Shown piece by piece: positions 7,091-50,984 of a DNA stretch of 59,371 bases. Every line of letters starts with the position of its first letter. Within the stretch, counting starts at the first letter, position 1. Below the pieces are notes generated by a model, which was not told where the DNA came from, searched no databases, and worked only from the letters and a program-made list of their open reading frames with translations. A program made the translations under genes and the position numbers. Source of the stretch: a virus. The DNA lies in IMG/VR virus record IMGVR_UViG_3300048918_000104, positions 1 to 59,371 of that record. One strand, written 5' to 3'.

Positions 7091-7094
7091 GACT

Positions 7095-29600: not shown

Positions 29601-29611
29601 GGAAAATAAAA

Positions 29612-32600: not shown

Positions 32601-33727
32601 TGAACGGCAATGTGATCTCATGGAACAAGGGCAACAACGTCCAGACGACCGCGTACAGCGCTTCATCCGTTCAGGTCACAGTCAATAACCCGGCCATCGC
32701 TACGCTGCAGTTCTACTGCCTTATCCAGAACCTCGGCGGCGCTAACGTATCGACGACGGCCACGTATGACCAGTGTCAGATGCTTCGGATGTCCGGCACG
32801 ACCTTGATTCAGGACGGCTCTGTGACGACGCAGAAGGTCGTTGCTGCAGCTATCACGGTAGACAAACTGGCGGTCAACTCGGTAACGGCCGACAAGATCG
32901 TGGCGAACTCGATTACGGGGGACAAGATCGCGGCGAATGCGATCACGGCCAACCTCATCGCGGCCGGGTCGATCAGCGCCGACAAGCTGCAGGTCGGAGG
33001 CAATCCTAACCTTCTGCCTAACCCCGGCTGGAGCAACGGCGTCTATTCGTTCTGGAACGCGCCGTACAACCTGCTGAATGGCTTCAGTCAGACAGTCTCG
33101 AACTCAAACGAGTGGACAGCGGTTCTTACCTGCGCTACCGCCAACGTAGAGGGTACGTTCGATAGCTATGCCGTACCGGTAACGGCCGGACAGTACTACA
33201 TGGCGAGCATCTACGGAGTCAGCGGCGTGAACATGTACCTGCGCCTGTACTTCCTGAATTCGAGCGGCCAGTCAATCGGCTACTACACCGCGCAGTTTCA
33301 GGGGGGTAACGCGGGGTCGATGGCTACCATGACCCGCGTGTTCGTCAAGGCCATCGCTCCGGCCGGGGCAGTAGCTGCTGTAGTCGGGATCGGCGTGAAC
33401 GCAGGATACAACCTCGGCGGCTGGGCCTACCGGCCGATGCTCGAAGAGTGCCTGCCTAATCAGGTCGGTCCGAGCGCATGGGGGTCGGGCATCAACACAG
33501 TGATCGGCCCCGGCATGATCCGCACCGGGTCGCTGTCGGCGATTACCGCTAACCTCGGGGCTATCAACGCCGGTTCACTCAACATCAACGGCCTCTTCGT
33601 GGTGAACTCAGACGGAACGACTACAATCCAGTCCGCGACATCCGGTCAGCGAAGCGTCCTGCAGGGCGGTACGTTCCTGGCGTACGACGGAAACAACACA
33701 CTTCGATTCAGAGCGGGGGTCTGGTAA
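29612..33727 (+). CDS. Host-specificity / central tail fibre protein (gpJ-like)
   Basis: 1371 aa; MNPAHVLYEGITNRAWGRGLP motif typical of phage tail tip proteins; repeated ANAITAGKIAAGAV-type segments. Confidence 0.75.
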   Translation: MGIFYEILILVASYLITAAMKPKARKAPDAVAALDSDFTFPQADEGTPEAVIFGEAWLPNWSVVWHGNYRGTPYQQQGTTIGYYYAFTMLMGLCRGPIDEVVEIDVGGRVVKKPSVDGSSVMDHSTTFFLDRSDLFGAAPNGSGGIQGNAYLLMGDSTQTLPASINCRNIGNNNYDTRNLSDLMPGPLPAFRGVTTVIYDGMVSFNQPNPQPWTFRVRRALKGWQDDAPFYPAKAVITVSSGVVTIPNPQLADPNISDDDKRKLARTVDVIETIKGMNPAHVLYEGITNRAWGRGLPSTLLNVASFTDAADILYDEGMAVATKWDRTGTLSDFMQTILDYIGASLYPDPTTGNLTLHLVRGDYDVNAIPTFTYTSGLLRVTDNSAGTGDAALNQIIVSYTSPVTGKTGQIRAQNIALIQSNSGAVFSDTKKYDCCPNADIAARIARRDLKAVSSGLRRLTVQLDRSAWKAAIPGGVIRIQNVTDNKIDDMVLRIAKVKFAGGTDGTIELTTTQDVFALNTTAYHYTIDTPPSWKPPVPSDTIKQTPPPLISNLRLAKPWDGNQFIVTWDRGADAAHYDIQIIAGNPSKVVRFSGNSAQNTYTYSIQQMLEDGGPWRTVQFQVRAVSSLGVVGPFYNLNLGNPQIVALTGIQIAEAMKQAFFQCDRPAEGDWQGIQVFISDTKGFAPDPGSNLVYDGPNLFVTLTQLADGTLLDPTKDYYLRAAGYDTFGADSLNYSSELVFSVVAMAPDAGTIVAGMIADGALDISKFARTIQPPLIVNGVPTAYAGSDVVLNSKDNLLYRWDATNLKYTAAVPAATIDGTIAINNIPQIPTTQLTGQISAAQIQANAVGANQIAANAITAGKIAAGAVLAGTIAAGAVGANEIAAHSISSDKLLVGDMTNQVDDPSFDLGDLRSWTADAAGIWRVDATTPGLGADGGTGVGIAQSFGGAGIVNYTLYNSRVMKATMGDIWYATAQLHLNVADAKAAAAIGVVAKDVNGNVISWNKGNNVQTTAYSASSVQVTVNNPAIATLQFYCLIQNLGGANVSTTATYDQCQMLRMSGTTLIQDGSVTTQKVVAAAITVDKLAVNSVTADKIVANSITGDKIAANAITANLIAAGSISADKLQVGGNPNLLPNPGWSNGVYSFWNAPYNLLNGFSQTVSNSNEWTAVLTCATANVEGTFDSYAVPVTAGQYYMASIYGVSGVNMYLRLYFLNSSGQSIGYYTAQFQGGNAGSMATMTRVFVKAIAPAGAVAAVVGIGVNAGYNLGGWAYRPMLEECLPNQVGPSAWGSGINTVIGPGMIRTGSLSAITANLGAINAGSLNINGLFVVNSDGTTTIQSATSGQRSVLQGGTFLAYDGNNTLRFRAGVW

Positions 33728-34032
33728 TGCCTGCAGGTATGCAATGCTGGGACGGCCTCGGCCGTCTCACCGTAGACTTCACGACACGTCTCCCGCGCGT
33801 CCTCGGGACTCGCGCTCTAACCGGAGTGGCCGGAAGCCTCACAGACAACAACCTGTCGCAAGGAACGCCGTTCTTCCTCTTCCAGCAGCAGGGCGTCTTC
33901 TATCACATCTCCGGCGATACGTGCCTTCCGACGATCACAATCTCAGGGAATACGATATCGTGGACGTACAGCGGCGGAACGACTTCGTACCATGTAAATG
34001 TGCAGGGGACTTTGTTTTATGGGGTGTACTAA
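33727..34032 (+). CDS. Hypothetical tail-associated protein
   Basis: ATG overlaps upstream TAA; 101 aa. Confidence 0.55.
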   Translation: MPAGMQCWDGLGRLTVDFTTRLPRVLGTRALTGVAGSLTDNNLSQGTPFFLFQQQGVFYHISGDTCLPTITISGNTISWTYSGGTTSYHVNVQGTLFYGVY

Positions 34033-34776
34033 ATGACTGCAGGCTTTCAGACGCTAACCGATAGCGGGTTCATTCAGGTGGACTCGGAACTCGGCATGCC
34101 GAACTGGCAGCTTCGGCAGAAGATCACGCAACCTTCCGTCGATAGCTCATTCCAGCTTTACTACAACAACGCCGGGATCACCAAGTCGGTCGCCTGGAAG
34201 ATGGTCACGTTCACTTTCACGGCCATCTCGCCGCTCGTCGCCTTCTCGGTCGATAACGGAGGGTATATTGTGCCGCTGAAGTGGACGCAGAACGGCAACT
34301 CGTGGCAGGTCGATCTGGTCTGCTCCGGCCCGTGTAACGTCACCGCTTACATTTTCGATCAGGCAGATCAGACGATTAGCGGAAACAACTACGGGGCGCA
34401 AGTATTCAACACCGCCGGATCATGTGTTGCGGACGTTACAGTTCCGTTCGCCCGCTTCCTCGGCTCGCAGACTAACAACCTGCAGTTCGGCAACGGGGCG
34501 ACCGGCTGGTGGTCGTCAGGAGGTCAGGAGCCGCCGAAGGGCCAGTTCGGGCAGTGGAACTACGGCGTCGGTCAGGTAGCAGTAGCTTGTGTGCGACCGG
34601 CGTACGAGTATGGCAACAACGTACAGGGATGCTACCTTTCGATGTTCAACACGAGCGGAGGCGTCATCACCGGCAACTTCATGGCCGCTGGCCCGGTCGG
34701 CGGCGAGAACAACTACGTAGGATTCAAGGAGGCCCTGCAGTGGGGCTTTTCCGCGATTGATGTGACTAACTATTAA
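34033..34776 (+). CDS. Hypothetical tail-associated protein
   Basis: 247 aa, tightly packed after 33727..34032. Confidence 0.6.
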   Translation: MTAGFQTLTDSGFIQVDSELGMPNWQLRQKITQPSVDSSFQLYYNNAGITKSVAWKMVTFTFTAISPLVAFSVDNGGYIVPLKWTQNGNSWQVDLVCSGPCNVTAYIFDQADQTISGNNYGAQVFNTAGSCVADVTVPFARFLGSQTNNLQFGNGATGWWSSGGQEPPKGQFGQWNYGVGQVAVACVRPAYEYGNNVQGCYLSMFNTSGGVITGNFMAAGPVGGENNYVGFKEALQWGFSAIDVTNY

Positions 34777-34793
34777 CCAGAAGGAGTAACACC

Positions 34794-35279
34794 ATGAGCA
34801 TTCACAAGACACTTACCGACATCGGCACGGACGTACCGATGGATCATCACGTCGTCGCCTCGGCTAACTGCCAGTACGACAACAATCAGACATATGTCAT
34901 CGTGCGGTCTTTCTTCTCGCAGGCGTCGTACGAGTCCGGCAAGCGCGCACTTGCTGAGACGCCGGTCATGCTGATGGGCGTTCCGCCGCGCGGCGTCGAG
35001 CAGCTTGATTGGGTTCAGGCCCAGCTTGTGCTGCCGGTTGACGAGACTGTCTCGACCAATACCTACGTCAACCGCTGGCAGTTCTCGGGCGGCGTCGTGG
35101 TGGATCATGCGCCGCAGCCTGACGCTCCGGCAGCGCCAGAAACGCCTGCAGCGGCTCAGACGGTCGGAGCGGCTACTCAGGTATCGGCTGAGGCGTCAGC
35201 GGCCACTGCAGCGCAATCTGAGCAGGATGCTACCGCTACGCAGGCGTCCGCGACCACGGGCGACTCTGCAGTTTCCTAA
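34794..35279 (+). CDS. Hypothetical protein with Ala/Thr/Gln-rich tail
   Basis: AAGGAG RBS; 161 aa. Confidence 0.6.
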   Translation: MSIHKTLTDIGTDVPMDHHVVASANCQYDNNQTYVIVRSFFSQASYESGKRALAETPVMLMGVPPRGVEQLDWVQAQLVLPVDETVSTNTYVNRWQFSGGVVVDHAPQPDAPAAPETPAAAQTVGAATQVSAEASAATAAQSEQDATATQASATTGDSAVS

Positions 35280-35282
35280 ACT

Positions 35283-35295
35283 GGAAGTAACTTCC
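35283..35295. repeat. Palindrome, exact copy
   Basis: GGAAGTAACTTCC, 3 nt after the stop of 34794..35279, upstream of the lysis cassette. Confidence 0.9.
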
Positions 35296-36162: not shown

Positions 36163-36673
36163 CGCAGCGCCGGGCGGCCTGCAGATGTGCGCCTTCCTCG
36201 ATACGATTGCGATCTCGGAAGGTACTTCCAACAGCATCATCACGCAGGACGATGGATACGACATCATCGTCAGCAGCATCGGCCCGGATGGCCGCTTGCA
36301 GCGTAACCGCTTCGGAGACTACAGCGACCATCCGTTCATGCCGCAGTTCGGCCGCAAGTCGCTGGTAATCAACAGCAAGGGCCTCACGTCGAATGCGAGT
36401 GGTCGGTATCAGATCATGCTGAAGGACTGGCCGCACTACAAGACGATGCTCAAGCTGCCGGACTTCAGTCCGCTCTCGCAGGACCTGTATTGCATCCAGA
36501 TCATCAAGGAGCGCGGAGCGATCCCGCTTCTTATAGCTAGAGACTTCGAGGGTGCAGTGATGAAGTGCGGCAACCTGTGGGCATCTTTCCCGAACAACAA
36601 CTACGGCCAGTTTCAGCACTCAATGGATACGCTGCGGGCCGCGTTCTTACTCAATGGAGGGTTCATCAAATGA
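36143..36673 (+). CDS. Endolysin, lambda R-type lytic transglycosylase (GH104)
   Basis: FLDTIAISEGT..GYDIIV..YSDHP..GRYQ..DFSP.SQD..IKERGA..LWASFP..YGQF parallels lambda R almost motif by motif; ATG 36143 with GGAG RBS. Confidence 0.9.
   Translation: MPRITPDAAPGGLQMCAFLDTIAISEGTSNSIITQDDGYDIIVSSIGPDGRLQRNRFGDYSDHPFMPQFGRKSLVINSKGLTSNASGRYQIMLKDWPHYKTMLKLPDFSPLSQDLYCIQIIKERGAIPLLIARDFEGAVMKCGNLWASFPNNNYGQFQHSMDTLRAAFLLNGGFIK
36217..36229. repeat. Palindrome, exact copy
   Basis: GGAAGGTACTTCC inside the endolysin CDS, over the S-E-G-T catalytic codons (could be partly coincidental). Confidence 0.7.
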
Positions 36674-37086
36674 CTCTTATCGTCGCACTGCTCGCTAAGG
36701 CGTGGCCTGCAATTCTCGGCGGCGTAATCGCCCTCGGCTCGGCAATCGCCATGTTCGTGAACAAGAAGAACGCCGACGCGAAGGTAGCGCAGGCCGGACA
36801 GAAGACCGAGGCGGCAAGAGCAGATGCTGCGCAAGCTCAGGCTTCGGCATCAGCCACAAACGAGGTCGCGGCAAAGGCGGATCAGGCTGCTGCCGAACAA
36901 GCTCTCAACTCAGCAAAGGAGTCGCAAAATGTTGAAAAGGAATGGCAAGGTCTTCCTCCTGGCGAAGCTGTGCATCGTCTGTACAGCGATGGCTGGGTGC
37001 GCAACGACGACGGCTCCGTCGCCAGTAGCCCAGCAGTGCCCGCCGCCACCGCAGCCGGAAGCGGTGGTGCGAACGAAGGTCATTGA
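36670..37086 (+). CDS. i-spanin (Rz-like)
   Basis: N-terminal TM LIVALLAKAWPAILGGVIALGSAIAMFV then Ala/Gln-rich periplasmic helix; ATGA-coupled to the endolysin. Confidence 0.75.
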   Translation: MTLIVALLAKAWPAILGGVIALGSAIAMFVNKKNADAKVAQAGQKTEAARADAAQAQASASATNEVAAKADQAAAEQALNSAKESQNVEKEWQGLPPGEAVHRLYSDGWVRNDDGSVASSPAVPAATAAGSGGANEGH

Positions 37087-37222
37087 TACGTTCTGCGACG
37101 ATGAGTCGCCGATCATCCTAAGCACGCGCGATGTGCTGACGGAAGGGTCGGCGAAGCAGATCGGAGCGCACAACGACAAGGGCGTAAAGAAGTGCGGCTG
37201 GAGAAGCGGCGCTTCGAAGTAA
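36929..37222 (+). CDS. o-spanin (Rz1-like lipoprotein), partly overlapping the i-spanin in another frame
   Basis: AGGAG RBS; signal peptide ending TAMAGC lipobox; Pro-rich mature N-terminus. Confidence 0.75.
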   Translation: MLKRNGKVFLLAKLCIVCTAMAGCATTTAPSPVAQQCPPPPQPEAVVRTKVIDTFCDDESPIILSTRDVLTEGSAKQIGAHNDKGVKKCGWRSGASK

Positions 37223-37227
37223 CTTCC
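37215..37227. repeat. Palindrome, one mismatch
   Basis: CGAAGTAACTTCC; centre TAA is the o-spanin stop; 14 nt before the tail-fibre ATG. Confidence 0.75.
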
Positions 37228-37241
37228 AACGAGAAACCGAC

Positions 37242-39599
37242 ATGACAGATTTCGTGACACTACCGCTACTGAATCCGAGGGGAGTCTATGACCCGACGAT
37301 CTGGTACGACCCGAACGACCAGATCACATACAACGGCGTGCCGTACTTCTGTCGTGTCGGGATCATCAACGGCCAGCCGGTCACGCCGGGCAGCGACCCG
37401 ACCGTGTGGCAGCTTCTGACGGAGCCCGGAGAGCCGGGCCAGAAGGGCGAACAAGGCGAGCCGGGCATCCAAGGGCCTCCTGGCCGACAGGGCATCTCCG
37501 GTGCTTCCGGAGCAGGCTATCGACTGCGCGGCCAGTGGGACCCGGCAACGGCGTACAGCGCGGCTGACAGCGTGACGTACACCAACTCAAGCGGGACTTA
37601 CTCGGTCGTCTGGTTCGCCATAAAGGACAACACCAATGTCGTTCCGGGGAGCGACAACACGGTATGGTCGGCGGGCATCAAGGGCGATACCGGTGACGTG
37701 ACTCCGGCCGCACAGGCAGCGGCTGACTCGGCCACTGCGTCGAAGAACGCAGCGGCCACTAGCGCGACTAACGCATCAACTAGCGCAACGAACGCCGCCA
37801 ATAGCGCCACGGCGGCCAACACGTCGAAGAACGCAGCAGCTACGAGCGCGACCAACGCAGCAACCAGCGAGACAAACGCCGCGAACAGCGCTGCTGCGGC
37901 CAACACGTCGAAGAACGCAGCGGCGACCAGCGCGACCAACGCAGCAACCAGCGAGACGAACGCCGCCAACAGCGCCGGGTCGGCCACTGCGTCGAAGAAC
38001 GCAGCAGCTACGAGCGAGACGAATGCAGCAAACAGCGCTGCAGCGGCAGCAGCGAGCGCGGCCTCCATCGCAAACCCTCTCCCGGTAGGCAGCGGCGGTA
38101 CGGGATCGCAGACCGCAGGCGGCGCTCGAACCAACCTCGGCGTTCCGGCGCTGGCGAGCGATAACACGCTTACCGGCGTGCAGAACCTCAACGGCCCGGT
38201 TACAGGCGCAGGCGGAGCCATCAACGGCGCAGGAAACATCGGTACGGGAACACCGGCAATCTTCAGGACCGCTGCAACGACCGTGGCGAGCAGTAACGTC
38301 ACTACGCTATACCACTTCTCGGCTACGCAGAACGGCCTTGCGTCCGGCGCTGTGGTTACGACGCAGTATGGCTTCTACGCAGGCGGCTCGCTGACAGGCG
38401 CGACTAACAACATGGGGTTCGTCGGCAACCTACCGGCAGCGGCGGGGAACTGGAATCTGTACATGATGGGTGCGGCAAAGAACTACCTTGCTGGGAGCCT
38501 GCTCATCGGTAGTAACGTCGATAACGGCTCGGCGTTGCAGGTCACAGGGGCTTCTACGTTCTCGGCTCGGCCGACGTTCGCAGGTAACGCACCGTGGGAC
38601 GCAGGCAACCTTAACCCGGCGAACTATCTTCCGCTTACGGGCGGAACGATGTCCGGCGCGATTATCTGTGCTGGCGTTACGGTAGCAGGCACCGGAACCG
38701 TGTCGCCGGGTTTAACGATGTCCGCGAATTCCGGAAGCTATAAGTCGTACTTCCGCTCGAACAACACCAACGTATCGACCGAGCTAATCAACAACGGTAA
38801 CAACGGTATCAACCTCGCAGTTACCGACTTCGGCGACATGAGCGTTAAGCGCAGCATGGCAGTAGGCAACACCGAGAATATCAACAAAATCGCAGTGAAC
38901 TTCTACGGACCGGGGTACGGTACGGGCATCTCGATGAGGGCTCAGGTAGATGCTGCAACGGCGGTACTGTTCTCGAACGCTGCGGCATCTACGGTCGGGT
39001 CGATCACGACCACGGCCTCGGCCACTGCGTTCAACACGTCGTCTGACTATCGGATCAAGTCGGACTACAAACTTATCACCGGGGCGCTCGACTCGATCAA
39101 CCGAATCAAGGTCTATCGAGGGAAGATTCACGACGACGACGGCCTTGAATACGTGATCGCACACGAACTGCAAGAAGAGATGCCGTTCGCTGTGACTGGC
39201 GAGAAGGACGCGCTGGGCGACTGGCATCCGGTGTACCGCGATGGCTACGACCCGAGCCCGAAGCTGGTTCAGGTCGAGGTCCCGGTTCAGGTCGAGGTCC
39301 CGGTTCAGGTCGAGGTCCCTGTCGTCGGTGAAGACGGCACGATTGAACTGAATGAAGATGGATCGCAAAAGACTGTAACCGAGACACGTACAGAAGTGCA
39401 GACGCAAACCGTCGTCGAGCTTCGCACGGTTCTGGCCGATCCGCAGCCGGGCGACATCGTAGACGCAGTGCAGGAGATGATTCTGCAGACGGTGGATTAC
39501 TCGAAGCTGGTCCCGCGCATGGTCGCGGCGATGCAGGAGATGTCCGGAATGATCGCCGACCTGAAGGCCGAAGTCGAAGCGCTGAAGGCGGCAAAGTAA
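37242..39599 (+). CDS. Tail fibre with collagen-like repeats and C-terminal S74 intramolecular chaperone domain
   Basis: GEPGQKGEQGEPGIQGPPGRQGISGASG G-X-Y run; 28-aa tandem repeats; SSDYRIKSDYKLI..IAHELQEEMPFAV plus terminal coiled coil typical of peptidase S74. Confidence 0.85.
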   Translation: MTDFVTLPLLNPRGVYDPTIWYDPNDQITYNGVPYFCRVGIINGQPVTPGSDPTVWQLLTEPGEPGQKGEQGEPGIQGPPGRQGISGASGAGYRLRGQWDPATAYSAADSVTYTNSSGTYSVVWFAIKDNTNVVPGSDNTVWSAGIKGDTGDVTPAAQAAADSATASKNAAATSATNASTSATNAANSATAANTSKNAAATSATNAATSETNAANSAAAANTSKNAAATSATNAATSETNAANSAGSATASKNAAATSETNAANSAAAAAASAASIANPLPVGSGGTGSQTAGGARTNLGVPALASDNTLTGVQNLNGPVTGAGGAINGAGNIGTGTPAIFRTAATTVASSNVTTLYHFSATQNGLASGAVVTTQYGFYAGGSLTGATNNMGFVGNLPAAAGNWNLYMMGAAKNYLAGSLLIGSNVDNGSALQVTGASTFSARPTFAGNAPWDAGNLNPANYLPLTGGTMSGAIICAGVTVAGTGTVSPGLTMSANSGSYKSYFRSNNTNVSTELINNGNNGINLAVTDFGDMSVKRSMAVGNTENINKIAVNFYGPGYGTGISMRAQVDAATAVLFSNAAASTVGSITTTASATAFNTSSDYRIKSDYKLITGALDSINRIKVYRGKIHDDDGLEYVIAHELQEEMPFAVTGEKDALGDWHPVYRDGYDPSPKLVQVEVPVQVEVPVQVEVPVVGEDGTIELNEDGSQKTVTETRTEVQTQTVVELRTVLADPQPGDIVDAVQEMILQTVDYSKLVPRMVAAMQEMSGMIADLKAEVEALKAAK
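37740..38060 (+). repeat. 84-nt tandem repeat, about 3.8 copies (28-aa SKNAAATSATNA.. units)
   Basis: TCGAAGAACGCAGC units start at 37740, 37824, 37908, 37992. Confidence 0.85.
39267..39320 (+). repeat. 18-nt tandem repeat x3 (VQVEVP units)
   Basis: GTTCAGGTCGAGGTCCCG repeated three times head to tail. Confidence 0.9.
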
Positions 39600-39623
39600 A
39601 GAGTTGCCATGTAGGTGAGAGTT

Positions 39624-39656
39624 GAGGGGCGGCGCAGTATCGGCCGCCCTCTTTTT
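39624..39656 (+). terminator. Rho-independent terminator between the convergent late and early-left arms
   Basis: GAGGGGCGGC ... GCCGCCCTC stem followed by TTTTT. Confidence 0.75.
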
Positions 39657-39657
39657 A

Positions 39658-40095
39658 TTACAGGCCGCAGAACTCTATCTCAGCCTCGATGCAGGCAATC
39701 TGCACCTTACGCAGTTCGAACGATCCGTACTTCGCCTCGATCCAGCCAGCATCTACCTCATCAAGCTCCATGAAGAAGCTCTCAGGCGTCTCGTCGATGC
39801 GGGACTCCATCATGGCAATCGGCGAGTCGCTCGGGTCATGATTGAAGTAGCGCATCGCCGGTAGGTGAGCGGGGTTGAGCGGCAGGACCTGACGCGGCTT
39901 GATGCCCATGTCGAGTTGCCGGGCCGCCTCGGTGCAAGCTGCTCGCCACACGTTCATCGGCCAGTAGCGTTCGAGCGTCGTGCCGAGCTTCGCAAGGTCA
40001 ACGCCTTTCCCCACGTCGCCGGACAGCAGGATCATCGCGTCAGCCAGGGCGCGGGCGTTGACCGCGAGCGGCGCGTCAGATGATGTCGTCGCCAT
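39658..40095 (-). CDS. Hypothetical protein (last gene of early-left operon)
   Basis: 145 aa ORF, overlaps upstream gene by 20 nt. Confidence 0.6.
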   Translation of the reverse strand: MATTSSDAPLAVNARALADAMILLSGDVGKGVDLAKLGTTLERYWPMNVWRAACTEAARQLDMGIKPRQVLPLNPAHLPAMRYFNHDPSDSPIAMMESRIDETPESFFMELDEVDAGWIEAKYGSFELRKVQIACIEAEIEFCGL

Positions 40096-40783
40096 CGACC
40101 TGCTCCGCTTTCACGTCGAGGCACTTGTTGGTAGCTTCGCGGACCGCCAGATCGGCGTCCAGCAGCTTTATGAACGCTGTGGCACGCTTAGACCCATCCG
40201 ACACGTAACGAAGGTCTTGCAGGCTCTGTACGCCCGCACCAACAGCAAGCATATGCTTCGTCCGGACGGTCCCGAACATCTCCTTGTACTGGATCGCACG
40301 AACTTTAAGTTGGTGATACCAGTCGGGGCCGGGAGACTCGTCGAACGGGTCGATGATTTTACGGACCGTGTCGGGGCTCGCACCGTACGCCTGCATGAGT
40401 GACTCCCGAGCGCCCTTGAACGACGTGCCGGTAGCTTCCTCGGCCGCTGAAGGGCAGGGCGGCGAAGCCGGAGCGATTTTGTCCGGGGTGATGCGTCCGC
40501 GCATGATGGCGGCGTATTCGTCCTTTGGGATCGCAAGCGTCATCGAGACTTTCGGGCGTGGCTGCAGAGTCTGGCCGCTCCCTATTGCGGTGAACGAACC
40601 GTCGTTACCGACGATTGCGAGGGCGATTTCGCGACCGACCTTCTGCTCGACGTAATCGACGAGGACCGCCTTCGCGTCGAGCGGCGAGAGACGGAACGCG
40701 TCGGGGCTGTCGTACTTGCGAACTTCGACGACCTCGATGCGGCGGCTGAAACGTTTCTTCTCTTTAGAGGGATTGGAGTTCAT
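40076..40783 (-). CDS. Hypothetical protein
   Basis: 235-aa ORF in operon orientation. Confidence 0.6.
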   Translation of the reverse strand: MNSNPSKEKKRFSRRIEVVEVRKYDSPDAFRLSPLDAKAVLVDYVEQKVGREIALAIVGNDGSFTAIGSGQTLQPRPKVSMTLAIPKDEYAAIMRGRITPDKIAPASPPCPSAAEEATGTSFKGARESLMQAYGASPDTVRKIIDPFDESPGPDWYHQLKVRAIQYKEMFGTVRTKHMLAVGAGVQSLQDLRYVSDGSKRATAFIKLLDADLAVREATNKCLDVKAEQVDGDDII

Positions 40784-41306
40784 GGATGCTATGGTCCTTA
40801 ATGACTTCGAAAGGGATCGGACTGAGGTCGCCCCGGAGGTACAGCGGGTGAGCGGGGGAGCCGTCCAGATTCAGTTGTATGGCGTGAAGAGGTCTTCCCA
40901 TCCACTCGGCCGCCAGGCTGATCTTGCGCACGCGGTCTTCCAGAATCGGCTTCACCTTACCCCACGCAGCGACTACGAGCGCCGTGTCGGGGTGCGCTAT
41001 GGCGTCGAGGACGTGCTTCATGTCGAATCCGGCCGCGATGGGGTCTGAGTGCGTCCGCAAGACATACTCGTACATCTCGGTCGGTCGGTGTGTGCGGAAT
41101 GAGCAGAGGTTCACGATACGCAGGCCGTCGTAGCCCCACGCGCGTGCGAAGGCGATGCAGCGCTTTATGGTCGCATCGTCGATCTTCGCGTCACCCCATG
41201 AAGGGTTGAGCATGATGAAGACGACGATGCGACAACCGATGTCCCACTCGCGGCGCAGCCAGTATCGCAGCGAGCCGTCAGGACTCAAGCGGGCATCGCG
41301 CAGCAT
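40764..41306 (-). CDS. DUF1643-family protein
   Basis: RYWLRREW..VVFIMLNPSWGD..DDATIKRCIAFA..IVNLCSFR..VVAAWG..GSPAHPLYL follows the DUF1643 signature. Confidence 0.7.
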   Translation of the reverse strand: MLRDARLSPDGSLRYWLRREWDIGCRIVVFIMLNPSWGDAKIDDATIKRCIAFARAWGYDGLRIVNLCSFRTHRPTEMYEYVLRTHSDPIAAGFDMKHVLDAIAHPDTALVVAAWGKVKPILEDRVRKISLAAEWMGRPLHAIQLNLDGSPAHPLYLRGDLSPIPFEVIKDHSIHELQSL

Positions 41307-42373
41307 TACAGATCGGCCGCTTGTGCTTCGAGTAGCTTGTCGGCGTGATCCTTCACCGCCGCATCGCAGGCGTCGGCCGCCGTGTCGCCAGTGCCTTGCG
41401 CGAGCGTCTCTGCGTCAGGGTTCTCGTCGCGCGAGGCCGACAGGATCGTCGCCGCGTAGCCCACACCGGCCGCGTACGCGATCTCCATGTACGGCTTGTA
41501 CGCGTCCTCGGCGTCAATCGCGGCCTGAAGCACCGTATCGAAGAGCGCGATGAAGTCGTTCACGGCGGTCGGAGACACGGACTCACCGCCGCCAGCGCTC
41601 TTGCGCTTCGCCTTCTTCTTCGCCACGACCTTACCGAGCGTCTTCGCCGTAACCTTTCGTCGGCCGTCGCCGGTCGGCGAGACCGCCTTCTGTGCCTTGA
41701 GGAAGCGCTTCTCGACATCCTCCGGCGTGTAGTTGCGCAGTTCGTCGATGACCGTCGTCGACGAGATTTCACCGTCGATCATGGCGTTCCGGATGACCTC
41801 GGTCGCGTTCGACAGAAGGATCAGGTCATCGATCCATCGACGCGTGCTGCCGAGCACTTTGGCGATGTCCTTGACGTGCATGCCGTCGTTCTGCAGGCGT
41901 CGCACGACGATGGATGCTTCGAGAGGCGAGGGCGGCTCACCACTGTTATCGAGCATGAGCCCGGCCGTCAGGTCGCGGAAGTTGATGTTGGTCTTGAACT
42001 CGACCGGGATGCCGTTGATCTTCGACTTGCCGGTGAGCTTCTTGTTGGCGACCTTCACAGCCTCGGTACGGTGATGGCCGTCATGGACGGCGACGCATGG
42101 CTTGCCGTCGATCTTGAGCGGCAGCACAGCGATAGGCTTCGTCGGATCGTAGCCGTGATTGACGATCTGCTCTTCGAGGAACTTCACGCGAGCCGCGTAG
42201 TTCTTCGAGTGGACGCGCATGTTGTAGCCCGGCAGGATCACGAGATTTTCGGGCGGTACGAAGTTGTGGCCGCGATCATCGGTGAACGCGCCGGCCGCTG
42301 CCAGCGCCTCGTCGATGCCGCACTCTTCAAGGACGAAGCTCACTTCGCTCGGGGGGATGTACGTCTTTGCCAT
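41306..42373 (-). CDS. ParB/Srx-fold DNA-binding protein (ParB/KorB-like; no ParA partner present)
   Basis: N-terminal ParB-type domain with VAVHDGHHRTEA, then HTH-like PLEASIVVRRLQNDGMHVKDIAKVLGSTRRWIDDLILLSN, Lys-rich linker, helical C-terminus; GGAG RBS. Confidence 0.7.
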   Translation of the reverse strand: MAKTYIPPSEVSFVLEECGIDEALAAAGAFTDDRGHNFVPPENLVILPGYNMRVHSKNYAARVKFLEEQIVNHGYDPTKPIAVLPLKIDGKPCVAVHDGHHRTEAVKVANKKLTGKSKINGIPVEFKTNINFRDLTAGLMLDNSGEPPSPLEASIVVRRLQNDGMHVKDIAKVLGSTRRWIDDLILLSNATEVIRNAMIDGEISSTTVIDELRNYTPEDVEKRFLKAQKAVSPTGDGRRKVTAKTLGKVVAKKKAKRKSAGGGESVSPTAVNDFIALFDTVLQAAIDAEDAYKPYMEIAYAAGVGYAATILSASRDENPDAETLAQGTGDTAADACDAAVKDHADKLLEAQAADL

Positions 42374-42431
42374 GATTTACTCCAGTCGTTGTAATGGTGG
42401 TGAGTTCGTCATTGTATTTGACGACGACTGA

Positions 42432-42461
42432 AGTATATTTGACAGGTTTAAAGCGTGTCAA
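42432..42461 (-). promoter_or_regulatory. Sigma70-type promoter in front of the ParB-like gene
   Basis: Minus strand TTGACA-CGCTTTAAACCTGTCAAA-TATACT (18-nt spacer). Confidence 0.6.
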
Positions 42462-42470
42462 CAAATCTTG

Positions 42471-42483
42471 AGAAGTTACTTCC
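42471..42483. repeat. Palindrome, one mismatch
   Basis: AGAAGTTACTTCC, 9 nt upstream of the -35 of the ParB-like gene promoter. Confidence 0.75.
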
Positions 42484-46267: not shown

Positions 46268-46675
46268 TCAAGAAAGAAGGAATTGTGTAAGTGCGACTGC
46301 GCCGTAGATGAGACCGCTGAGAAGCACTCCGACGAGCGCACCGAGGAAGACCCCGGCAAGCACCGCAGCGATGTCGCTGCCGTTCTCCCAGCACATCTTT
46401 ACGACGCCGACAATCATACAGATCAGGATGACGGCTCCTATGCTCCCCCACAGGATTTTGTCCCCCACAGTCGCCGGTCCGGACTGCGGATGTACGAACT
46501 CGACACACGAGGCGAACGTCTGCATGTTATCGACGCTGCCTCGCGGGTCCTGCGACAGAACTACCTGACAGCGCGCCAGGTGTGCCTGACGTTCAGCCTC
46601 GGCCGCCGCTGCTGCAGCCGCTGCCGCCATCGCGGTAGCCGCCGCGCCGTTATCACCACTACTGCTTGCGGGCAT
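46268..46675 (-). CDS. Membrane protein with poly-Ala N-terminal region
   Basis: AGGAGA RBS; two to three C-terminal TM segments (GAVILICMIVGVV, AAVLAGVFLGALVGVLLSGLIYGAV). Confidence 0.6.
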   Translation of the reverse strand: MPASSSGDNGAAATAMAAAAAAAAAEAERQAHLARCQVVLSQDPRGSVDNMQTFASCVEFVHPQSGPATVGDKILWGSIGAVILICMIVGVVKMCWENGSDIAAVLAGVFLGALVGVLLSGLIYGAVALTQFLLS

Positions 46676-46877
46676 TCTGAATCTCCTGCGCTTGTTTAAC
46701 CACGGCCTGCACGGTGCGGCCCATCTTTTCGAAGCTCACATCCCACACCATTCGCGTTGCGTAGCAGTAGGCCCGAAGCGGCCAGTACTTCAGAATGACG
46801 TAACGGGGCTCGCCGTCCCGCAGACACACCTGATACTCCTTGTGGTCTCGGATTACGGTGACGATTGCTGCGCTCAT
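46659..46877 (-). CDS. Hypothetical small protein
   Basis: 72 aa from ATG 46877; first gene after promoter 46907..46935. Confidence 0.5.
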   Translation of the reverse strand: MSAAIVTVIRDHKEYQVCLRDGEPRYVILKYWPLRAYCYATRMVWDVSFEKMGRTVQAVVKQAQEIQNARKQ

Positions 46878-46892
46878 CTGATGCCCCGGTTG

Positions 46893-46905
46893 AGAAGTTA
46901 CTTCC
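46893..46905. repeat. Palindrome, one mismatch
   Basis: AGAAGTTACTTCC, 1 nt downstream of the -10 of promoter 46907..46935. Confidence 0.75.
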
Positions 46906-47203
46906 AATTATGAAGGTGTGGTTTAACCTTGTCAACGGGTTTTTCCTGCTGCGGATGCGAGATGCGGATCGAAGTAACGCGCACGCCCCCTACCGCCGTC
47001 GCTATCTTTGCGAAGTTAGCAGCCTCGGTCGGTCGGAACGGTCCGGAGACACTGACGACCTGCGCGCCGTGCAGCAGCACGTTCACGATGATTGGCGGAT
47101 TAGCGATGTAGTTCTCGACTTCACGAAAAAGCTCCATCCCCCACGTCGGGCCGTTGAGCTTCTCTGCCTCAAGGAGCTTACTGAGCAGTTCGATAATTTG
47201 CAT
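46898..47203 (-). CDS. Hypothetical protein
   Basis: 101 aa from ATG 47203 (MQIIELLSK..); stop codon lies in the centre of palindrome 46893..46905. Confidence 0.6.
   Translation of the reverse strand: MQIIELLSKLLEAEKLNGPTWGMELFREVENYIANPPIIVNVLLHGAQVVSVSGPFRPTEAANFAKIATAVGGVRVTSIRISHPQQEKPVDKVKPHLHNWK
46907..46935 (-). promoter_or_regulatory. Sigma70-type early promoter with the palindrome at its start site
   Basis: Minus strand TTGACA-AGGTTAAACCACACCTT-CATAAT, followed 1 nt later by GGAAGTAACTTCT (46905..46893). Confidence 0.65.
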
Positions 47204-47909
47204 GGTGTTTCCCCGGTACGTACTTCTGGAAGCCGCACTTCGAGCAGGACATAAGCGCCCTGCCGTCGCCGGTCTCTTCGTCCATATCAAGCTCATGGAC
47301 GCAATTGCTGTCGCCTTTCCGGAGAGCCTTCAGCGCTTCGTGAGCCTCTTTGAACTCCTTGTCGATCTGCTTCCAGCCGCCCGTCAGATATCGCCGCAGG
47401 AACCAGTCGATGACGAATGCCTGCTCGTCTTCGGCCTTCGCCCTGATCTCGTATCCGAGAGCCCGGAAGCACTGAGCGTACGGGATACAGGTGAAGTTCG
47501 GCATCCCGAGAATATTTTTCAGATCATCGTTCAGCCGTGCCGGATATGGATTCTGTCGAGGGTCCACCTGATCGCCATTAGCATCCAGCACCAGAACCCC
47601 AAAATCAGATATCCCCGGAGCGGATGACGGGGCTCGGTCCGGCTTCACAGTGCTGCGTTCAGTCTCGTCGAAGGACAGGACGACAATGCTCTCCGGCAGG
47701 CCGTAGCCGCGCTGAATATGAGTTATAGCCCCGCGCACGAAACGGCCTGTCATCTCCATACCGTTTCCGGTATCTGCGATCTCGTGCATCACTATGTCAT
47801 CGCCCTCCGCGTAGCCTCGATCATCGACGCGGACCTCAGCGCGTTTGCTGCGAGTCCATACGTCGCGGAACGGGATCACGTCTGATTTGACGTGGTGGAC
47901 ATTTTTCAT
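47178..47909 (-). CDS. ASCH/DUF3850-domain protein with extra C-terminal domain
   Basis: AAGGAGA RBS; HHVKSDVIPFRDVW..RAEVRVDDRGYAEGDDIVMHE..TGRFV..I..GYGLPESIVVLS follows the DUF3850 pattern. Confidence 0.6.
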   Translation of the reverse strand: MKNVHHVKSDVIPFRDVWTRSKRAEVRVDDRGYAEGDDIVMHEIADTGNGMEMTGRFVRGAITHIQRGYGLPESIVVLSFDETERSTVKPDRAPSSAPGISDFGVLVLDANGDQVDPRQNPYPARLNDDLKNILGMPNFTCIPYAQCFRALGYEIRAKAEDEQAFVIDWFLRRYLTGGWKQIDKEFKEAHEALKALRKGDSNCVHELDMDEETGDGRALMSCSKCGFQKYVPGKHHANYRTAQ

Positions 47910-47920
47910 GCTTCTTCTCC

Positions 47921-48145
47921 TTATAAATCCCATGCGGGATCAGATTTATCCAGCTTCGCGCACACTTCGCGCACAGCGTCCGAGTCGATCTCAAGCCGCA
48001 GCGACGCCTTAACCTGCAGCAGATCGGATAGAACGGCAGAGAACGCGGAGCAGGCCGCGTCGATATCCTCAAGCTCCGGAGCGCTCTTCTTGACTAGCGC
48101 ATTAACGGTCTCGACGAGCCGCCACTTGTTAGCGACCTCACTCAC
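47921..48145 (-). CDS. Hypothetical small protein ending DPAWDL
   Basis: 74-aa helical ORF. Confidence 0.55.
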   Translation of the reverse strand: MSEVANKWRLVETVNALVKKSAPELEDIDAACSAFSAVLSDLLQVKASLRLEIDSDAVREVCAKLDKSDPAWDL

Positions 48146-48852
48146 GTCTGGTCGCCGCCGATGTCGGCAGGATGCTCTCCGGGAGCTTTGCCGTAGTTCA
48201 TCGGGCGGCTATCGCGCAAATCCGCAGCCCACTGACAGGGTGTGGCGTTCGCAGAAGCCTCGCGTATCTGCTCGGCCGTCTGAAACTGCTCTCGTTTCTC
48301 GCCATACGGCGCGGCGAACAGCGGCGACATGGCGCACTGCCGGTCCTTCGTCGTCGCTGTATTTACGACGCTCGCGATGTGGCCGAAAGCCTCTGCGTAC
48401 ATCCGGTCTACGCGCATGCGCTTGATGAACTGAACTGCAGAGTGCATCGGCTTGCCGGTCTGATGCCAGTCCGGATCGATGTCGTACAGGCAGTTCGCCA
48501 CTTCGCGCCATGCCTCGGCCTGCTCACGGATTGCAGCGAGGTCTTCGCCAGTCGTTTCAGGAGTCGGGCCGGGTTTGGAAGTAACTTCCTCCTTGCGCAC
48601 GACCTCGACCGGCTGGTCGAAGTAGTAGAAGCGGCCATTCGAGAAGCCGTTCTCGTTCGCTACGATGCGCGACCAGCGGATGTCAGTCGCCCACGGACTG
48701 ATGCCTGAGACTTTCGCCGTCAGTTCGTCCAGTCTCTTCAGGCGCGCGGCGATCTCAATGAAGTAGTCGCTGTACGCCGCATAGTCGAGATTCCGTGAGA
48801 AGCGCTCTGCCAGCGCGATCAGCGCTTCAGTGGTGGTTAGTTTCTTGTTCAT
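48142..48852 (-). CDS. Hypothetical protein
   Basis: 236-aa ORF, ATGA-type coupling downstream. Confidence 0.6.
   Translation of the reverse strand: MNKKLTTTEALIALAERFSRNLDYAAYSDYFIEIAARLKRLDELTAKVSGISPWATDIRWSRIVANENGFSNGRFYYFDQPVEVVRKEEVTSKPGPTPETTGEDLAAIREQAEAWREVANCLYDIDPDWHQTGKPMHSAVQFIKRMRVDRMYAEAFGHIASVVNTATTKDRQCAMSPLFAAPYGEKREQFQTAEQIREASANATPCQWAADLRDSRPMNYGKAPGEHPADIGGDQT
48577..48589. repeat. Palindrome, exact copy
   Basis: GGAAGTAACTTCC inside 48142..48852 (E-V-T-S on minus strand). Confidence 0.9.
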
Positions 48853-48863
48853 GGTAGTAGTCC

Positions 48864-49214
48864 TTATAATCCGTGGTCCAACTCGTACACGTAGACTTTG
48901 ATGCCTGCGCGTTGAGCCCGTTGTATCAGATTGAACGTGCCGCGATCAGAGCCGTCATAGAGCGCGACAAGTGCATCTGCGTATTCGACGATCTCGGCGT
49001 CCCTGATCTCGCCTGCCCGCTCGCCGTAGTGAAAGAAGTTCGCGGGTATCCGCTTGGTCCCGTAGCCCATCTCCCGCGACCAGCCCCATATGTCGAGTTC
49101 TTCGTTCATGAGGCCAGTCACGATCTCGGTAGGCCGGAATCCGGATGCGAGAATCGCGGCGGCCACATCAGTGATGTCGTTCACTGATTTCGCGCACCGG
49201 ACGATGACCTTCAT
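48864..49214 (-). CDS. SLOG-fold protein, DUF2493-like
   Basis: MKVIV..EIVTG..PANFFHYGERAGEIRDAEIVEYADALVALYDGSDRGTFNLIQRAQRAGIKVYV follows the DUF2493 pattern; ATGA-coupled start at 49214. Confidence 0.55.
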   Translation of the reverse strand: MKVIVRCAKSVNDITDVAAAILASGFRPTEIVTGLMNEELDIWGWSREMGYGTKRIPANFFHYGERAGEIRDAEIVEYADALVALYDGSDRGTFNLIQRAQRAGIKVYVYELDHGL

Positions 49215-50119
49215 TCCGACGCCTCGTACGCAGCGCACGGCCCCGGATGGCCTTTATGCCGCGAGCAGAGCCCACCGGCAGGCGCTTTGTCGCACGTCTC
49301 GACGAGAGGCTTCTCGCCCTCCTTCAGCGTTGCGTCAGCGCCGCGCAGATCGAAGCCCGAGACGATCATCGACGCAACGCCTGTCGTCGCATAATCGAAC
49401 GGACGCCACTCGTGTTTGCAGGACTGACATTGATGCGTCTTATGCGGCGGGTTGAGCCATTCGTTCTTCTCGATGAAGTCCTCCCAATCGCGCGACCCGA
49501 CGACGAAGCCCCGCTCTGCCGCAGTGATGCGAACCTCTTCTTCGTTCGACGCGTCGATGTGCTGAACGCCGCACTTCGGGCAGTGCAGAACCATCGGGAC
49601 TGGCTCGGCGTCGTGGCTGGTAGCCAGCTTCGAGACAGCCTTGTCGCGGGCTTCATCCATATCCATCCGATTCAGTTCGGCGAGCAGCAGAGCAACCGCT
49701 TTCTCCAGATTGCGGCGCGGCGTCGTCGGCTTCCACCACGAGGCATCGAACGGCCACGAGCGCGGCGGATCGCCTTCGTCATAGCCGCCATCACCCTGCG
49801 ACATGGGGTGCAGCTTGTCGGCCGCCGCGAGCGCGTAGGAGGCTCCTGCCGACGCCAGTTCGCCAGCATCGTTCTTCAGGTCGCCCTCGAAGTCAAAGCC
49901 CTCTTCGACAATCTGCCGCATGCGCTCTCGGACCGACGCCTCGATCCCGTCCGTAATCGCGTCAGGCTTCTTCACGCACACGATCAGCGTGCGCAGCAGT
50001 GTGAACGCTTCGCCGCCGAGCGCGACCTGCTTCATCAGCACGTCAGGCGGCTCGCTCTTCTCCAGCCGATCGATGATCGACCTTGCCTTGTCAGCCAGAA
50101 ACTCAATAGCGCTGTTCAT
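49211..50119 (-). CDS. Hypothetical protein with C-terminal zinc ribbon
   Basis: HCPKCG..CQSCKH CxxC pairs; N-terminal helical region of unknown family. Confidence 0.6.
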   Translation of the reverse strand: MNSAIEFLADKARSIIDRLEKSEPPDVLMKQVALGGEAFTLLRTLIVCVKKPDAITDGIEASVRERMRQIVEEGFDFEGDLKNDAGELASAGASYALAAADKLHPMSQGDGGYDEGDPPRSWPFDASWWKPTTPRRNLEKAVALLLAELNRMDMDEARDKAVSKLATSHDAEPVPMVLHCPKCGVQHIDASNEEEVRITAAERGFVVGSRDWEDFIEKNEWLNPPHKTHQCQSCKHEWRPFDYATTGVASMIVSGFDLRGADATLKEGEKPLVETCDKAPAGGLCSRHKGHPGPCAAYEASE

Positions 50120-50194
50120 TTCCAGTACCCCCTATAACGAATATAACGCCGCGCCCTCTTCGAATGAGGCCCGCGACCATGCTTCCAGTAGTTT

Positions 50195-50449
50195 TTAATC
50201 AGCCAGGGCGTCGAGCCGTGGCGAGCGCACGTCGGCAGAGTCCGACGCTTTATCAGCCTTACCTTCATTCGATCTCCTGACCTCCTTCAGCAGCGCCACA
50301 GCGCCTGCATGAAAGTCTGCCTTCTTGCGGTAGGTCCTGCGCAGCGATGCCTTATACACGTCCGGCAGGTTCGCCTTGTTGTTCTCGGCCAGATGATCCC
50401 AGCGTTCGAACTGCTCACGATGCCAGACGTATAGCTGGTCGAGCGTCAT
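50195..50449 (-). CDS. Hypothetical protein
   Basis: 84 aa, ATGA-coupled to upstream gene. Confidence 0.55.
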   Translation of the reverse strand: MTLDQLYVWHREQFERWDHLAENNKANLPDVYKASLRRTYRKKADFHAGAVALLKEVRRSNEGKADKASDSADVRSPRLDALAD

Positions 50450-50958
50450 TTCGGCCAGCCAGCTTCGGCAAGGCTTTCAAGCACGGAAGTAACTTCGGGT
50501 ACGGTCCGGTCGAGCGGCTCATCTGTCTCGACGTACTTCGTGAGTTCGGGAGCGCGAGCATGTAGCTGCTCGACGGTAAAACATGACCACACGAGAGCGC
50601 GTACCTTATCCTTCAGCGCGTCGATTCGATCCTCCTGCTCTCGGTTAAGTCGCTCCAACTCCGCGATCTGTGCCCACAACCTTGCGTCACCTTTAATTGC
50701 CGCGAGCGTCGCTTTCCAATTGTCACTATCGGGTCCGACGATGCACACTTGCGTGAAGTCCGTTCCGGCTTCAGTGTATGTGTGAGAGAACCATTCCGGA
50801 TACTTCGCATACGATCCTCGCATCTCATCCGGGAGGTTCGATATCGCCCACGTCTGCAGAAGCACTCTGAACTTCTCCTGATAGTCGATCATCGGAACAT
50901 CAGCCATCACCGACTTGACCAGTTTCTTGCGCGCGTCGTTTGTAAATCGCTTTGCCAT
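50446..50958 (-). CDS. Hypothetical protein
   Basis: AAGGAGA RBS; 170 aa. Confidence 0.65.
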   Translation of the reverse strand: MAKRFTNDARKKLVKSVMADVPMIDYQEKFRVLLQTWAISNLPDEMRGSYAKYPEWFSHTYTEAGTDFTQVCIVGPDSDNWKATLAAIKGDARLWAQIAELERLNREQEDRIDALKDKVRALVWSCFTVEQLHARAPELTKYVETDEPLDRTVPEVTSVLESLAEAGWPK

Positions 50959-50984
50959 TTTTACTCTCCTTGTTTATGAGCGCT

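Follow-up and report, generated by a model that had tools for sequence, protein, structure and literature searches.

The 59,371-nt stretch of viral DNA studied here (positions 1 to 59,371 of IMG/VR record IMGVR_UViG_3300048918_000104, hereafter the window) encodes on its minus strand a ParB/KorB-like protein of 355 amino acids (aa; 41306–42373) and carries about 30 copies of a short palindrome. We favour a joint model, to which we give a probability of roughly 0.6, in which a dimer of this protein loads at the parS-like palindromes, regulates its own gene and spreads over the whole phage genome. The window is a circularly closed assembly: its bases 1–127 and 59245–59371 are identical, and this 127-bp terminal overlap gives a real genome length of 59,244 bp. 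The phage is apparently lytic. Its nearest cultured relatives, which share its genome plan, are the Casjensviridae-type siphophages BcepNazgul and AH2 (Burkholderia), R16L/R22L (Erythrobacter) and Carli (Sphingomonas). Palindromes together with an orphan ParB are a trait of this lineage, which points to the marking or coating of genomes rather than to an ordinary promoter switch.

The protein belongs to the ParB/KorB/Noc superfamily, as a divergent member whose box II is non-canonical. Its open reading frame (ORF) starts with an ATG preceded by GGAG, and the product consists of an N-terminal ParB/Srx fold (key residues N51-x-R53, G99-H-H-R102 and N143), a helix-turn-helix (HTH) at residues ~150–215, a K-rich linker and a helical C-terminus ending in AADL. 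Pfam matched the KorB DNA-binding domain (PF08535, 23.5 bits for a cut-off of 22.3) and, weakly, HTH_ParB, and gave no match to the ParB/Srx N-domain (PF02195). The latter was revealed by profile searches against the PDB and by Foldseek on an AlphaFold2 (AF2) model. Profiles of the homologues matched Spo0J (1vz0, 2e-8 and 1.3e-9) and KorB (8qa8, 1.6e-8), as well as Noc and the ParB of Myxococcus and Bacillus, over the N-domain and the HTH. The AF2 model is confident over residues 10–250 and of low confidence in the first ~10 residues. Its best Foldseek match was KorB (8qa9, E = 1.5e-7, target-normalised TM-score 0.67), with ParB, Noc and Spo0J close behind; E-values ranged from 1e-7 to 1e-5 for KorB, ParB and Noc, and reached 1e-2 for sulfiredoxin. 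The protein also matches phrog_1033 (“ParB-like partition protein”) at 2.6e-34, and its family includes 1,254 clusters (50% identity) at E ≤ 1e-30. The assignment to a ParB/KorB type with an N-domain and an HTH, made in a preliminary description from the sequence alone, is thus upheld by the PDB profiles, by the structural match to KorB and by phrog_1033.

In profile alignments with Spo0J, Noc and ParB, N51-x-R53 pairs with the Q-P-R of box I, G99-H-H-R102-T-E with the G-E-R-R-x-R of box II, and the Asn of ENLQR with N143. Of box II, just the Gly and the second Arg remain: the canonical GERRxR patch with its catalytic Glu is absent and DGHHR stands in its place, as had been described. The residues N51-x-R53, the Gly and Arg of G99-H-H-R102, and N143 (boxes I, II and III) are invariant across the family. 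Hence, the ligand pocket is apparently conserved, despite the replacement of the catalytic Glu and of two Arg. The protein is an orphan, without a ParA partner, again in agreement with the preliminary description. The deviant Walker A motif KGGxxK[ST] is absent from all ORFs of the window, and ParA-type Pfam or PHROG matches were not found among the ~40 early proteins scanned, which also lacked any other detectable HTH. The N-terminus (MAKTYIPPSE...) does not contain a ParA-binding motif of the LG[KR]GL type, and the early proteins and ORFs scanned included no KorA-like or IncC-like partner.

Allowing for up to two mismatches, the 13-mer GGAAGTNACTTCC occurs 30 times in the window, when 1.53 occurrences are expected and shuffled sequences give at most six; the earlier estimate of about 30 dispersed palindromes was accurate. 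The exact 11-mer core GAAGTNACTTC is present 15 times (0.05 expected). In a logo of the 30 sites, the symmetry reaches 15 bp, T-GGAAGT-N-ACTTCC-A, i.e., (T)GGAAGTNACTTCC(A), with a spacer of strictly 1 nt (6-1-6 geometry). Eighteen of the 30 copies are wholly intragenic, in the genes for the primase, exonuclease, polymerase, helicase, TerL, portal, protease and tape measure, and in several early genes. They use all three reading frames in unrelated proteins, and their central base avoids an in-frame TAA. This variety of frames and proteins indicates selection at the level of DNA, and rules out that the palindromes are the by-product of a conserved peptide. Two other explanations were rejected: a terminator or RNA hairpin, as folding is impossible for a 6-bp stem closed by a 1-nt loop and the sites are both coding and non-coding, and a restriction site, since we see enrichment of the sequence and not avoidance. 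The site of a host factor is disfavoured, since the motif does not track host taxonomy. Across the lineage, genomes have 28–34 sites each, at median gaps of 1.4–2.3 kb; 55–65% of the sites are coding, and 26–39% touch non-coding DNA, which makes up 12–13% of the genome (a 2–3.4-fold enrichment).

The same palindromes are found in the relatives of this phage. We found those in IMG/VR by alignment of tail proteins and by a narrower alignment of ParB; single-protein queries with proteins of the window, Carli and R16L returned no relatives, and the Nazgul query returned only BcepNazgul itself (L015). The exact core GAAGTNACTTC is present in 18 copies in BcepNazgul and 25 in R16L, and the core palindrome is also enriched in L001–L003 and in 14 out of 14 R16L-like parB loci of IMG/VR. 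Carli and L056/L109 carry GGAAATNATTTCC instead, with the 6-1-6 geometry kept. Carli has 34 copies of it in 50 kb (at most one mismatch), and GAAGT half-sites are almost absent from its genome. The two site forms are written TGGAAGTAACTTCCA for the protein of the window and gp29 of BcepNazgul, and GGAAATCATTTCC for the Carli type. They do not follow host phylogeny: the Erythrobacter and Burkholderia phages share a motif, from which the Sphingomonas phage differs. The preliminary description had presented the layout as new for such a phage. Full-text searches gave no phage paper with the motif, and the one paper to mention both BcepNazgul and “palindrom” is silent on it. The layout is, however, lineage-wide and includes the cultured BcepNazgul, and is not peculiar to this phage.

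Some intragenic sites are found at homologous codons, in TerL (window, R16L and Carli), in the portal (window and R16L) and in the exonuclease (Nazgul and R16L). The TerL site is the most informative. The zinc-ribbon motif of the window and of R16L reads CPxCG-S-Y-F-E and is encoded with GGAAGTTACTTC, that of Carli reads CPDCG-N-H-F-S and is encoded with GGAAATCATTTC, and there is no site at the homologous position of Nazgul (GDWF) or AH2 (GEYF). In Carli, both arms of the palindrome were therefore switched in place to the motif of the clade, with two amino-acid changes (SY to NH), as expected from one dimeric binder whose specificity changed genome-wide. The sites are under selection at the DNA level and positionally conserved, and their motif has switched clade-wide.

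The spacing of the sites was compared with simulations, using sites called with at most one core mismatch and the coefficient of variation (CV) of the gaps. Sites are more evenly spaced than random in R16L (CV 0.57) and Carli (CV 0.39), where no simulation gave values as low (P ~2e-4 or less). The largest gaps are 3.7 kb in R16L and 3.0 kb in Carli, for a spacing of ~1.5 kb in the relatives. Even spacing was also found in 10 of 13 further loci (CV 0.44–0.58). This evenness in the relatives argues for coverage of the whole genome.

One palindrome copy, AGAAGTTACTTCC on the plus strand (42471–42483), is associated with the promoter of the parB-like gene. On the minus strand one reads GGAAGTAACTTCT, 9 nt, TTGACA, 18 nt and TATACT, followed by GGAG and the ATG. 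This sigma-70-like promoter (42432–42461, minus strand) matches 11 of 12 consensus positions in our promoter scan; the earlier account of the promoter and of a palindrome 9 nt upstream of its -35 needs no change. The spacing of 9 nt is identical in L001, L002, L003 and L005, down to 56% protein identity, and the -35 of the gene is invariant in the relatives. Elsewhere, a palindrome precedes the promoter of the parB operon by 7 nt (Carli), 14–15 nt (R16L) or 61 nt (Nazgul). The copy in the window is likely to be a site of autoregulation.

The protein and the palindromes tend to occur together. A ParB-like gene is present in all the palindrome-bearing phages that were open to checking, and it is the only gene outside replication and structural functions that is common to the four complete palindrome-bearing genomes (4/4). 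Among 50 tail-tip (J-like) loci, the gene, scored if present in the locus, contig or lineage, accompanies 7 of the 8 loci with palindromes and 1 of the 42 others (P = 6e-7). The loci L075 and L078 provided a blind test: they are dense in palindromes and no parB-like gene was first seen in them, and the gene was found ~5 kb further along the extended contig. We infer that the ParB-like protein is the probable binder of the palindromes, and word this with caution because AH2 has the gene and lacks the sites.

In the joint model, the HTH domain of the dimer would recognise the palindrome over 13–15 bp, and the ~30 copies would act as nucleation sites along the whole chromosome, akin to parS, OB or NBS. 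Autoregulation would come from the copy that precedes the gene's own -35 by 9 nt. The others, mostly intragenic and at kilobase spacing, would let the protein load along the entire genome. The N-domain probably binds a nucleoside triphosphate (NTP), either cytidine triphosphate (CTP) or adenosine triphosphate (ATP), and would drive spreading or sliding between sites. The outcome would be that phage DNA, and only phage DNA, is marked or coated. We infer that such spreading is nucleotide-dependent; as KorB slides up to 1.5 kb and the sites are here 1.4–2 kb apart, it would cover the genome fully. Candidate purposes are global silencing or timing of expression, the protection, compaction or organisation of the viral DNA, and the recruitment of partners by the acidic C-terminal tail. 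A broader reading, which we put forward as possible and no more firmly than that, is that virulent Nazgul-like siphophages of alpha- and beta-proteobacteria mark themselves in this way with ~25–35 evenly spaced parS-like palindromes kept even in essential genes. Protein sequences might then have been bent to keep the sites, and the whole chromosome might be coated and organised by a viral counterpart of Noc and KorB. Just as tentatively, its role would be distinct from partition and from regulation promoter by promoter, and would lie in protecting, compacting or timing DNA, or in recruiting enzymes.

Several observations weigh against the joint model. Other residues stand in for the catalytic Glu and two of the Arg in GERRxR, and the protein may therefore not hydrolyse CTP or cycle as a clamp. 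The C-terminal region, possibly responsible for dimerisation, is predicted to be helical (residues 268–354) with a model confidence (pLDDT) of only 37–64; its sequence is not kept between clades. The evenness of spacing is not significant in the window (CV 0.81) or in Nazgul (CV 0.74), whose large gaps sit in the tail and tail-fibre modules. All associations between the protein and the sites are confounded by common descent, and the type of DNA polymerase found in the window (7108–9162, plus strand) also tracks the palindromes: it is 43–45% identical to those of Nazgul, R16L and Carli, and has no detectable match in AH2, which has a different polymerase. There is no simple recognition-helix code for the GAAGT and GAAAT sites. 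Finally, conserved ParB-like homologues are found in AH2/L119, L115 and L120, in which no palindromes are detectable. Equal conservation in phages without the motif had been named beforehand as grounds for abandoning a binding role, and AH2 goes part of the way in this direction.

The genome of AH2 has no dispersed palindrome, and no operator-like palindromes near gp28. A search for another dispersed motif gave only AGGTCCGAAT iterons clustered at the cos ends, with ~18 copies in both orientations within ~600 bp of these ends (L009 189–215; L010 7537–8021, i.e., AH2 57537–58021). They are likely to be terminase or origin iterons. The relatives of AH2 (L110, L112, L114 and L122) have 3–7 degenerate GAAGT-type sites for 0.3–0.5 expected, and AH2 therefore looks like the end point of a loss. 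As for the recognition helix, it has R-Y/W in most GAAGT phages, N-K-H in L153 (also GAAGT), and R-H with D183N in the GAAAT clade. A code in which R-Y/W reads GAAGT and R-H reads GAAAT was rejected, since it is contradicted by L059 (T-R-Y, no sites) and L153. The code and D183N in the GAAAT clade are kept as a weak hint.

The palindromes could be bound by another factor, either an undetected small phage protein or a protein of the host, with the ParB-like protein in an unrelated role and co-occurring with the sites by ancestry. This would account for the presence of the protein without sites in AH2, L115 and L120, for the inconsistent recognition-helix code and for the correlation with the polymerase type; most early proteins lack detectable domains, and a cryptic DNA binder might be among them. 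We nevertheless regard it as unlikely. No other early gene is common to all palindrome-bearing genomes, and an identical 11-bp core across phages with ~30% identical proteins needs a conserved binder. A host factor fits poorly with a motif that does not track host taxonomy. The blind test on L075/L078 was positive, and in a sister clade an array of palindromes adjoins the parB-like gene. These temperate-looking genomes of ~40–45 kb (L124–L128, L144) carry directly after the gene a tandem array of a 15-bp unit, GCGAACCTTCGCAGC, each containing GCGAAccTTCGC, in ~20–30 copies (L125 11121–11460; L128 11004–11390; L144 8639–8950). This is a centromere-like arrangement, and its place beside the gene indicates that the family pairs with short palindromes.

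The preliminary description had likened the layout to the global regulon of KorB on plasmid RK2, in which each palindrome would be an operator and the protein would repress promoters from sites at or near them. The structural search, with KorB as top match, and the geometry at some promoters speak for this. The palindrome conserved 9 nt upstream of the gene's own -35 in the clade of the window, and the analogous sites 7 nt (Carli) and 14–15 nt (R16L) from TTGACA, do resemble a class I operator of KorB, as had been claimed. Three of the five best promoter-like sites of the early region have a copy within ~70 bp, and KorB can act at a distance by sliding (PMC11790492). Yet, the comparison with a regulon fails on most other counts. 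The 18 intragenic copies include those in the polymerase, TerL, portal and tape-measure genes, and the majority of sites is intragenic in the other genomes as well. In each genome, a TTGAC is found within 30 nt of only 1–3 sites, about as many as chance would give (1–2), and only the gene's own promoter and one or two others have an adjacent site. Positions relative to the promoter are inconsistent (-44, +1 and -66): among the three early promoters the palindrome lies upstream of the -35 (42461), overlaps the +1 (46935) or lies 31 nt upstream (53057). The even spacing seen in the relatives is unexpected for operators, and a partner like KorA or IncC was not found. A KorB-type regulon is thus improbable.

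Two further roles have very little in their favour. In the first, the protein would load at the palindromes and carry or activate a DNA-modifying or DNA-processing enzyme, as proposed for the ParBs associated with 5mYOX. Phage ParB-like proteins do activate T-dioxygenases (bioRxiv 10.1101/2025.08.14.668559), Nazgul and AH2 encode proteins annotated as dioxygenases, the acidic C-terminal tail is conserved, and the window has Nmad5, DUF3850 and DUF7609 proteins and a DUF1643 gene coupled to the parB-like gene. We find this very unlikely, because no candidate enzyme is common to all palindrome-bearing phages and because the characterised ParBs of this kind have no DNA-binding domain, unlike the 355-aa protein. 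The second role, partition, would give the phage a plasmid-like persistence with dispersed centromeres as in N15, using a ParA of the host. It would fit the membership of the protein in the ParB family and the centromere-like array of the sister clade, and the N15 prophage does carry dispersed centromere sites. Against it stand the lack of an encoded ParA and of a ParA-binding motif, the fact that integrase, plasmid-replication and lysogeny functions were not detected in the early genes, and the presence of ~30 sites, far in excess of the needs of a centromere. In our scan of genome contigs, the R16L-type ParB homologue was found in just four contigs of metagenome-assembled genomes (MAGs) among 185,579 species genomes, which indicates that this element is uncommon as a prophage or plasmid; a role in partition is highly unlikely.

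The remaining copies are distributed as follows. From the left end of the window, copies with one mismatch are found within the primase-like gene (1953–1965), at a small gene's end, 7 nt ahead of the exonuclease gene (4949–4961), abutting the ATG of the DNA polymerase (7095–7107), and twice within the helicase gene (9408–9420 and 10290–10302). An exact copy lies within the exonuclease gene (5772–5784), and palindrome-like copies with two mismatches lie within the DNA polymerase gene (8181–8193) and at the TerS/TerL junction (11655–11667). The TerL copy at CPxCG-SYF-E (12494–12506, one mismatch) is the one with a homologous site in R16L and a GAAAT variant in Carli. The copy in the portal gene (15217–15229, one mismatch) is the one shared with R16L. 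They are followed by a palindrome-like copy with two mismatches in the prohead protease gene (17030–17042), an exact intergenic copy after the major capsid gene (18824–18836), two copies with one mismatch at the start of and within the same tail gene (21679–21691 and 21964–21976), a copy in the tape-measure gene with two outer mismatches and an exact core (22890–22902), and one in a tail gene (27979–27991, one mismatch). An exact intergenic copy (35283–35295) and a copy with one mismatch in an endolysin-like gene (36217–36229) have kept their positions in L001. In the copy at 37215–37227 (one mismatch), the central TAA is the stop codon of the gene at 36824–37222.

Among the early genes, a copy with one mismatch (46893–46905) begins 2 nt downstream of the -10 of a promoter-like site (46935–46907, minus strand), and exact (48577–48589) and one-mismatch (52462–52474) copies lie within early genes. 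A one-mismatch copy lies within the Nmad5 gene (50485–50497), and a palindrome-like copy with two mismatches overlaps the start codon of DUF7609 (51482–51494). Two more, with one mismatch each, are placed 31 nt upstream of the -35 at 53057 (minus-strand promoter), in the divergent control region of the early genes (53089–53101), and at the end of a gene, with an ATG next (56140–56152). The last three are in a non-coding region of 720 bp (58090–58810), with an ATG after each. Two of them, with one mismatch (58311–58323 and 58379–58391), belong to the two copies of a perfect 30-bp direct repeat (58310–58339 and 58378–58407), and the third is exact (58497–58509). This region also contains TGTGCGGCTGTG-like repeats and, from synteny with BcepNazgul, is probably near cos or an origin. 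Variants of the palindrome shorter by one base, TTGGAAGTACTTC and TTGGAAGCACTTCC, flank an AT-rich stretch with direct repeats of ATATAACCA (59050–59068, 59125–59185 and 59355–59370, the latter being also 111–126), which may be an origin or control region.

The largest stretches of the window free of palindromes (27991–35283 and 37227–42471) cover the tail-fibre module and neighbouring tail genes, which may have been acquired recently. In the tail-fibre protein (37242–39599, plus strand) we noted a G-x-x stretch like that of collagen, long repeats of SATNA/ANSA and three VEVPVQ repeats. The DUF1643 gene (40764–41306, minus strand) begins at the stop codon of the parB-like gene, with a TAATG overlap and translational coupling. 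The same pairing is found in L001, L003 and L005, there is no homologue in Nazgul, R16L or Carli, and sequence searches gave no relative among the solved structures of the PDB. An early operon (46659–51496, minus strand) encodes the proteins with DUF3850/ASCH-like (47178–47909), Nmad5 (50446–50958) and DUF7609 (51197–51496) domains, which in other settings have been connected with the modification of nucleic acids; phages often carry DUF3850 as a fusion with a ParB fold. The ParB-like protein (..AQAADL), the helicase (9278–11101, ..TDDLNL) and the putative TerS (11098–11751, ..PDPAEGL) each finish with an acidic tail whose last residue is Leu, and ParB-like homologues of other clades end in ..DL, ..DI or ..GL. 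Such tails recall the replisome-docking tails of phage T7 proteins. Other palindromes were seen in the temperate-looking sister clade. L134, another of its members, has four copies of TAGCGCNGCGCTA clustered within 1 kb (6907–7957), 2–3 kb upstream of a parB-like gene; this sequence is similar to the operator of KorB, TTTAGCSGCTAAA. In the same clade, the intergenic palindromes TTGACG-N4-CGTCAA (L121 1209–5933; L144 663–4384), which contain a -35-like hexamer, probably serve as operators for another repressor.

Orphan proteins with a ParB fold are very common in phages, and the members of phrog_1033 are labelled only as “ParB-like partition protein”. Surveys have found them to be abundant without assigning sites to them (10.1101/2025.10.10.680097). 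The present case pairs such a protein with a defined set of DNA sites, from Burkholderia to Erythrobacter phages. It comes with natural variants of specificity (Carli) and of loss (AH2), and with BcepNazgul as a cultured representative. The even spacing of the sites and the recoding of TerL to keep one of them are unusual signatures of selection on genome architecture. If the protein does bind these sites and spread from them, the chromosomes of lytic viruses would come under the sliding-clamp paradigm of the CTP switch (ParB, Noc, KorB and VirB), and the case would show a way for a virus to mark its own DNA.

The 355-aa protein has the domain order of the ParB (Spo0J) of ParABS systems (ParB/Srx N-domain, HTH, linker and C-terminal region), gives there its best sequence-profile matches, and is associated, like them, with a palindromic site. 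In contrast to these systems, the phage has neither ParA nor a ParA-binding peptide, GERRxR is reduced to GHHR-x-E, and the sites are not clustered near an origin. The stoperators of cluster A mycobacteriophages provide another comparison: ~25–35 copies of a 13-bp site, many of them intragenic, are bound by one phage protein (gp71 of L5) for genome-wide control. Both phages have many short sites scattered in the genome, often within genes. Yet, stoperators are asymmetric, oriented with transcription and bound by the monomeric immunity repressor of a temperate phage, whereas the sites described here are palindromic, have a ParB-like candidate binder and occur in a phage where no lysogeny module was seen. 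The phage ParB-like regulators associated with 5mYOX are also orphans, with a ParB nucleotide-binding domain, and movement along DNA has been proposed for them (O'Toole et al., bioRxiv 10.1101/2025.08.14.668559). They differ in lacking a DNA-binding domain, in acting through a partner dioxygenase and in having no defined sites described.

KorB of RK2, with its 12 OB operators, resembles the phage protein in its ParB fold and KorB-type HTH, in its odd palindrome of 13 bp (6-1-6), in its multiple sites on a replicon of ~60 kb and in the position of one site just upstream of a -35. It represses from 4 bp upstream of the -35, or from 1.5 kb away by CTP-dependent sliding, and has as partners IncC (a ParA) and the clamp-locking KorA (PMC11790492). 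The likeness of a partner-less phage protein to RK2 KorB, drawn in the preliminary description, does not hold in this respect, as no such partners were found in the phage. KorB also retains the CTP-binding Arg R117 in a canonical patch, and belongs to a plasmid, whereas the apparently lytic phage has ~30 sites, mostly intragenic and evenly spread. Noc of Bacillus subtilis (~70 sites) is an orphan paralogue of ParB, without ParA, that marks the genome by many dispersed palindromes, and its profile and fold search scores with the 355-aa protein are comparable. Many dispersed sites and the lack of a ParA are also what we find in the window. The Noc site differs in being an even palindrome of 14 bp, and the context is here viral. 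An N-terminal helix targets Noc to the membrane, and the role of Noc is in the selection of the division site (summarised in 10.1101/2025.10.10.680097). The phage arrangement differs from both KorB and Noc in combining the absence of partners, an apparently lytic phage, and sites that are mostly intragenic and evenly spaced.

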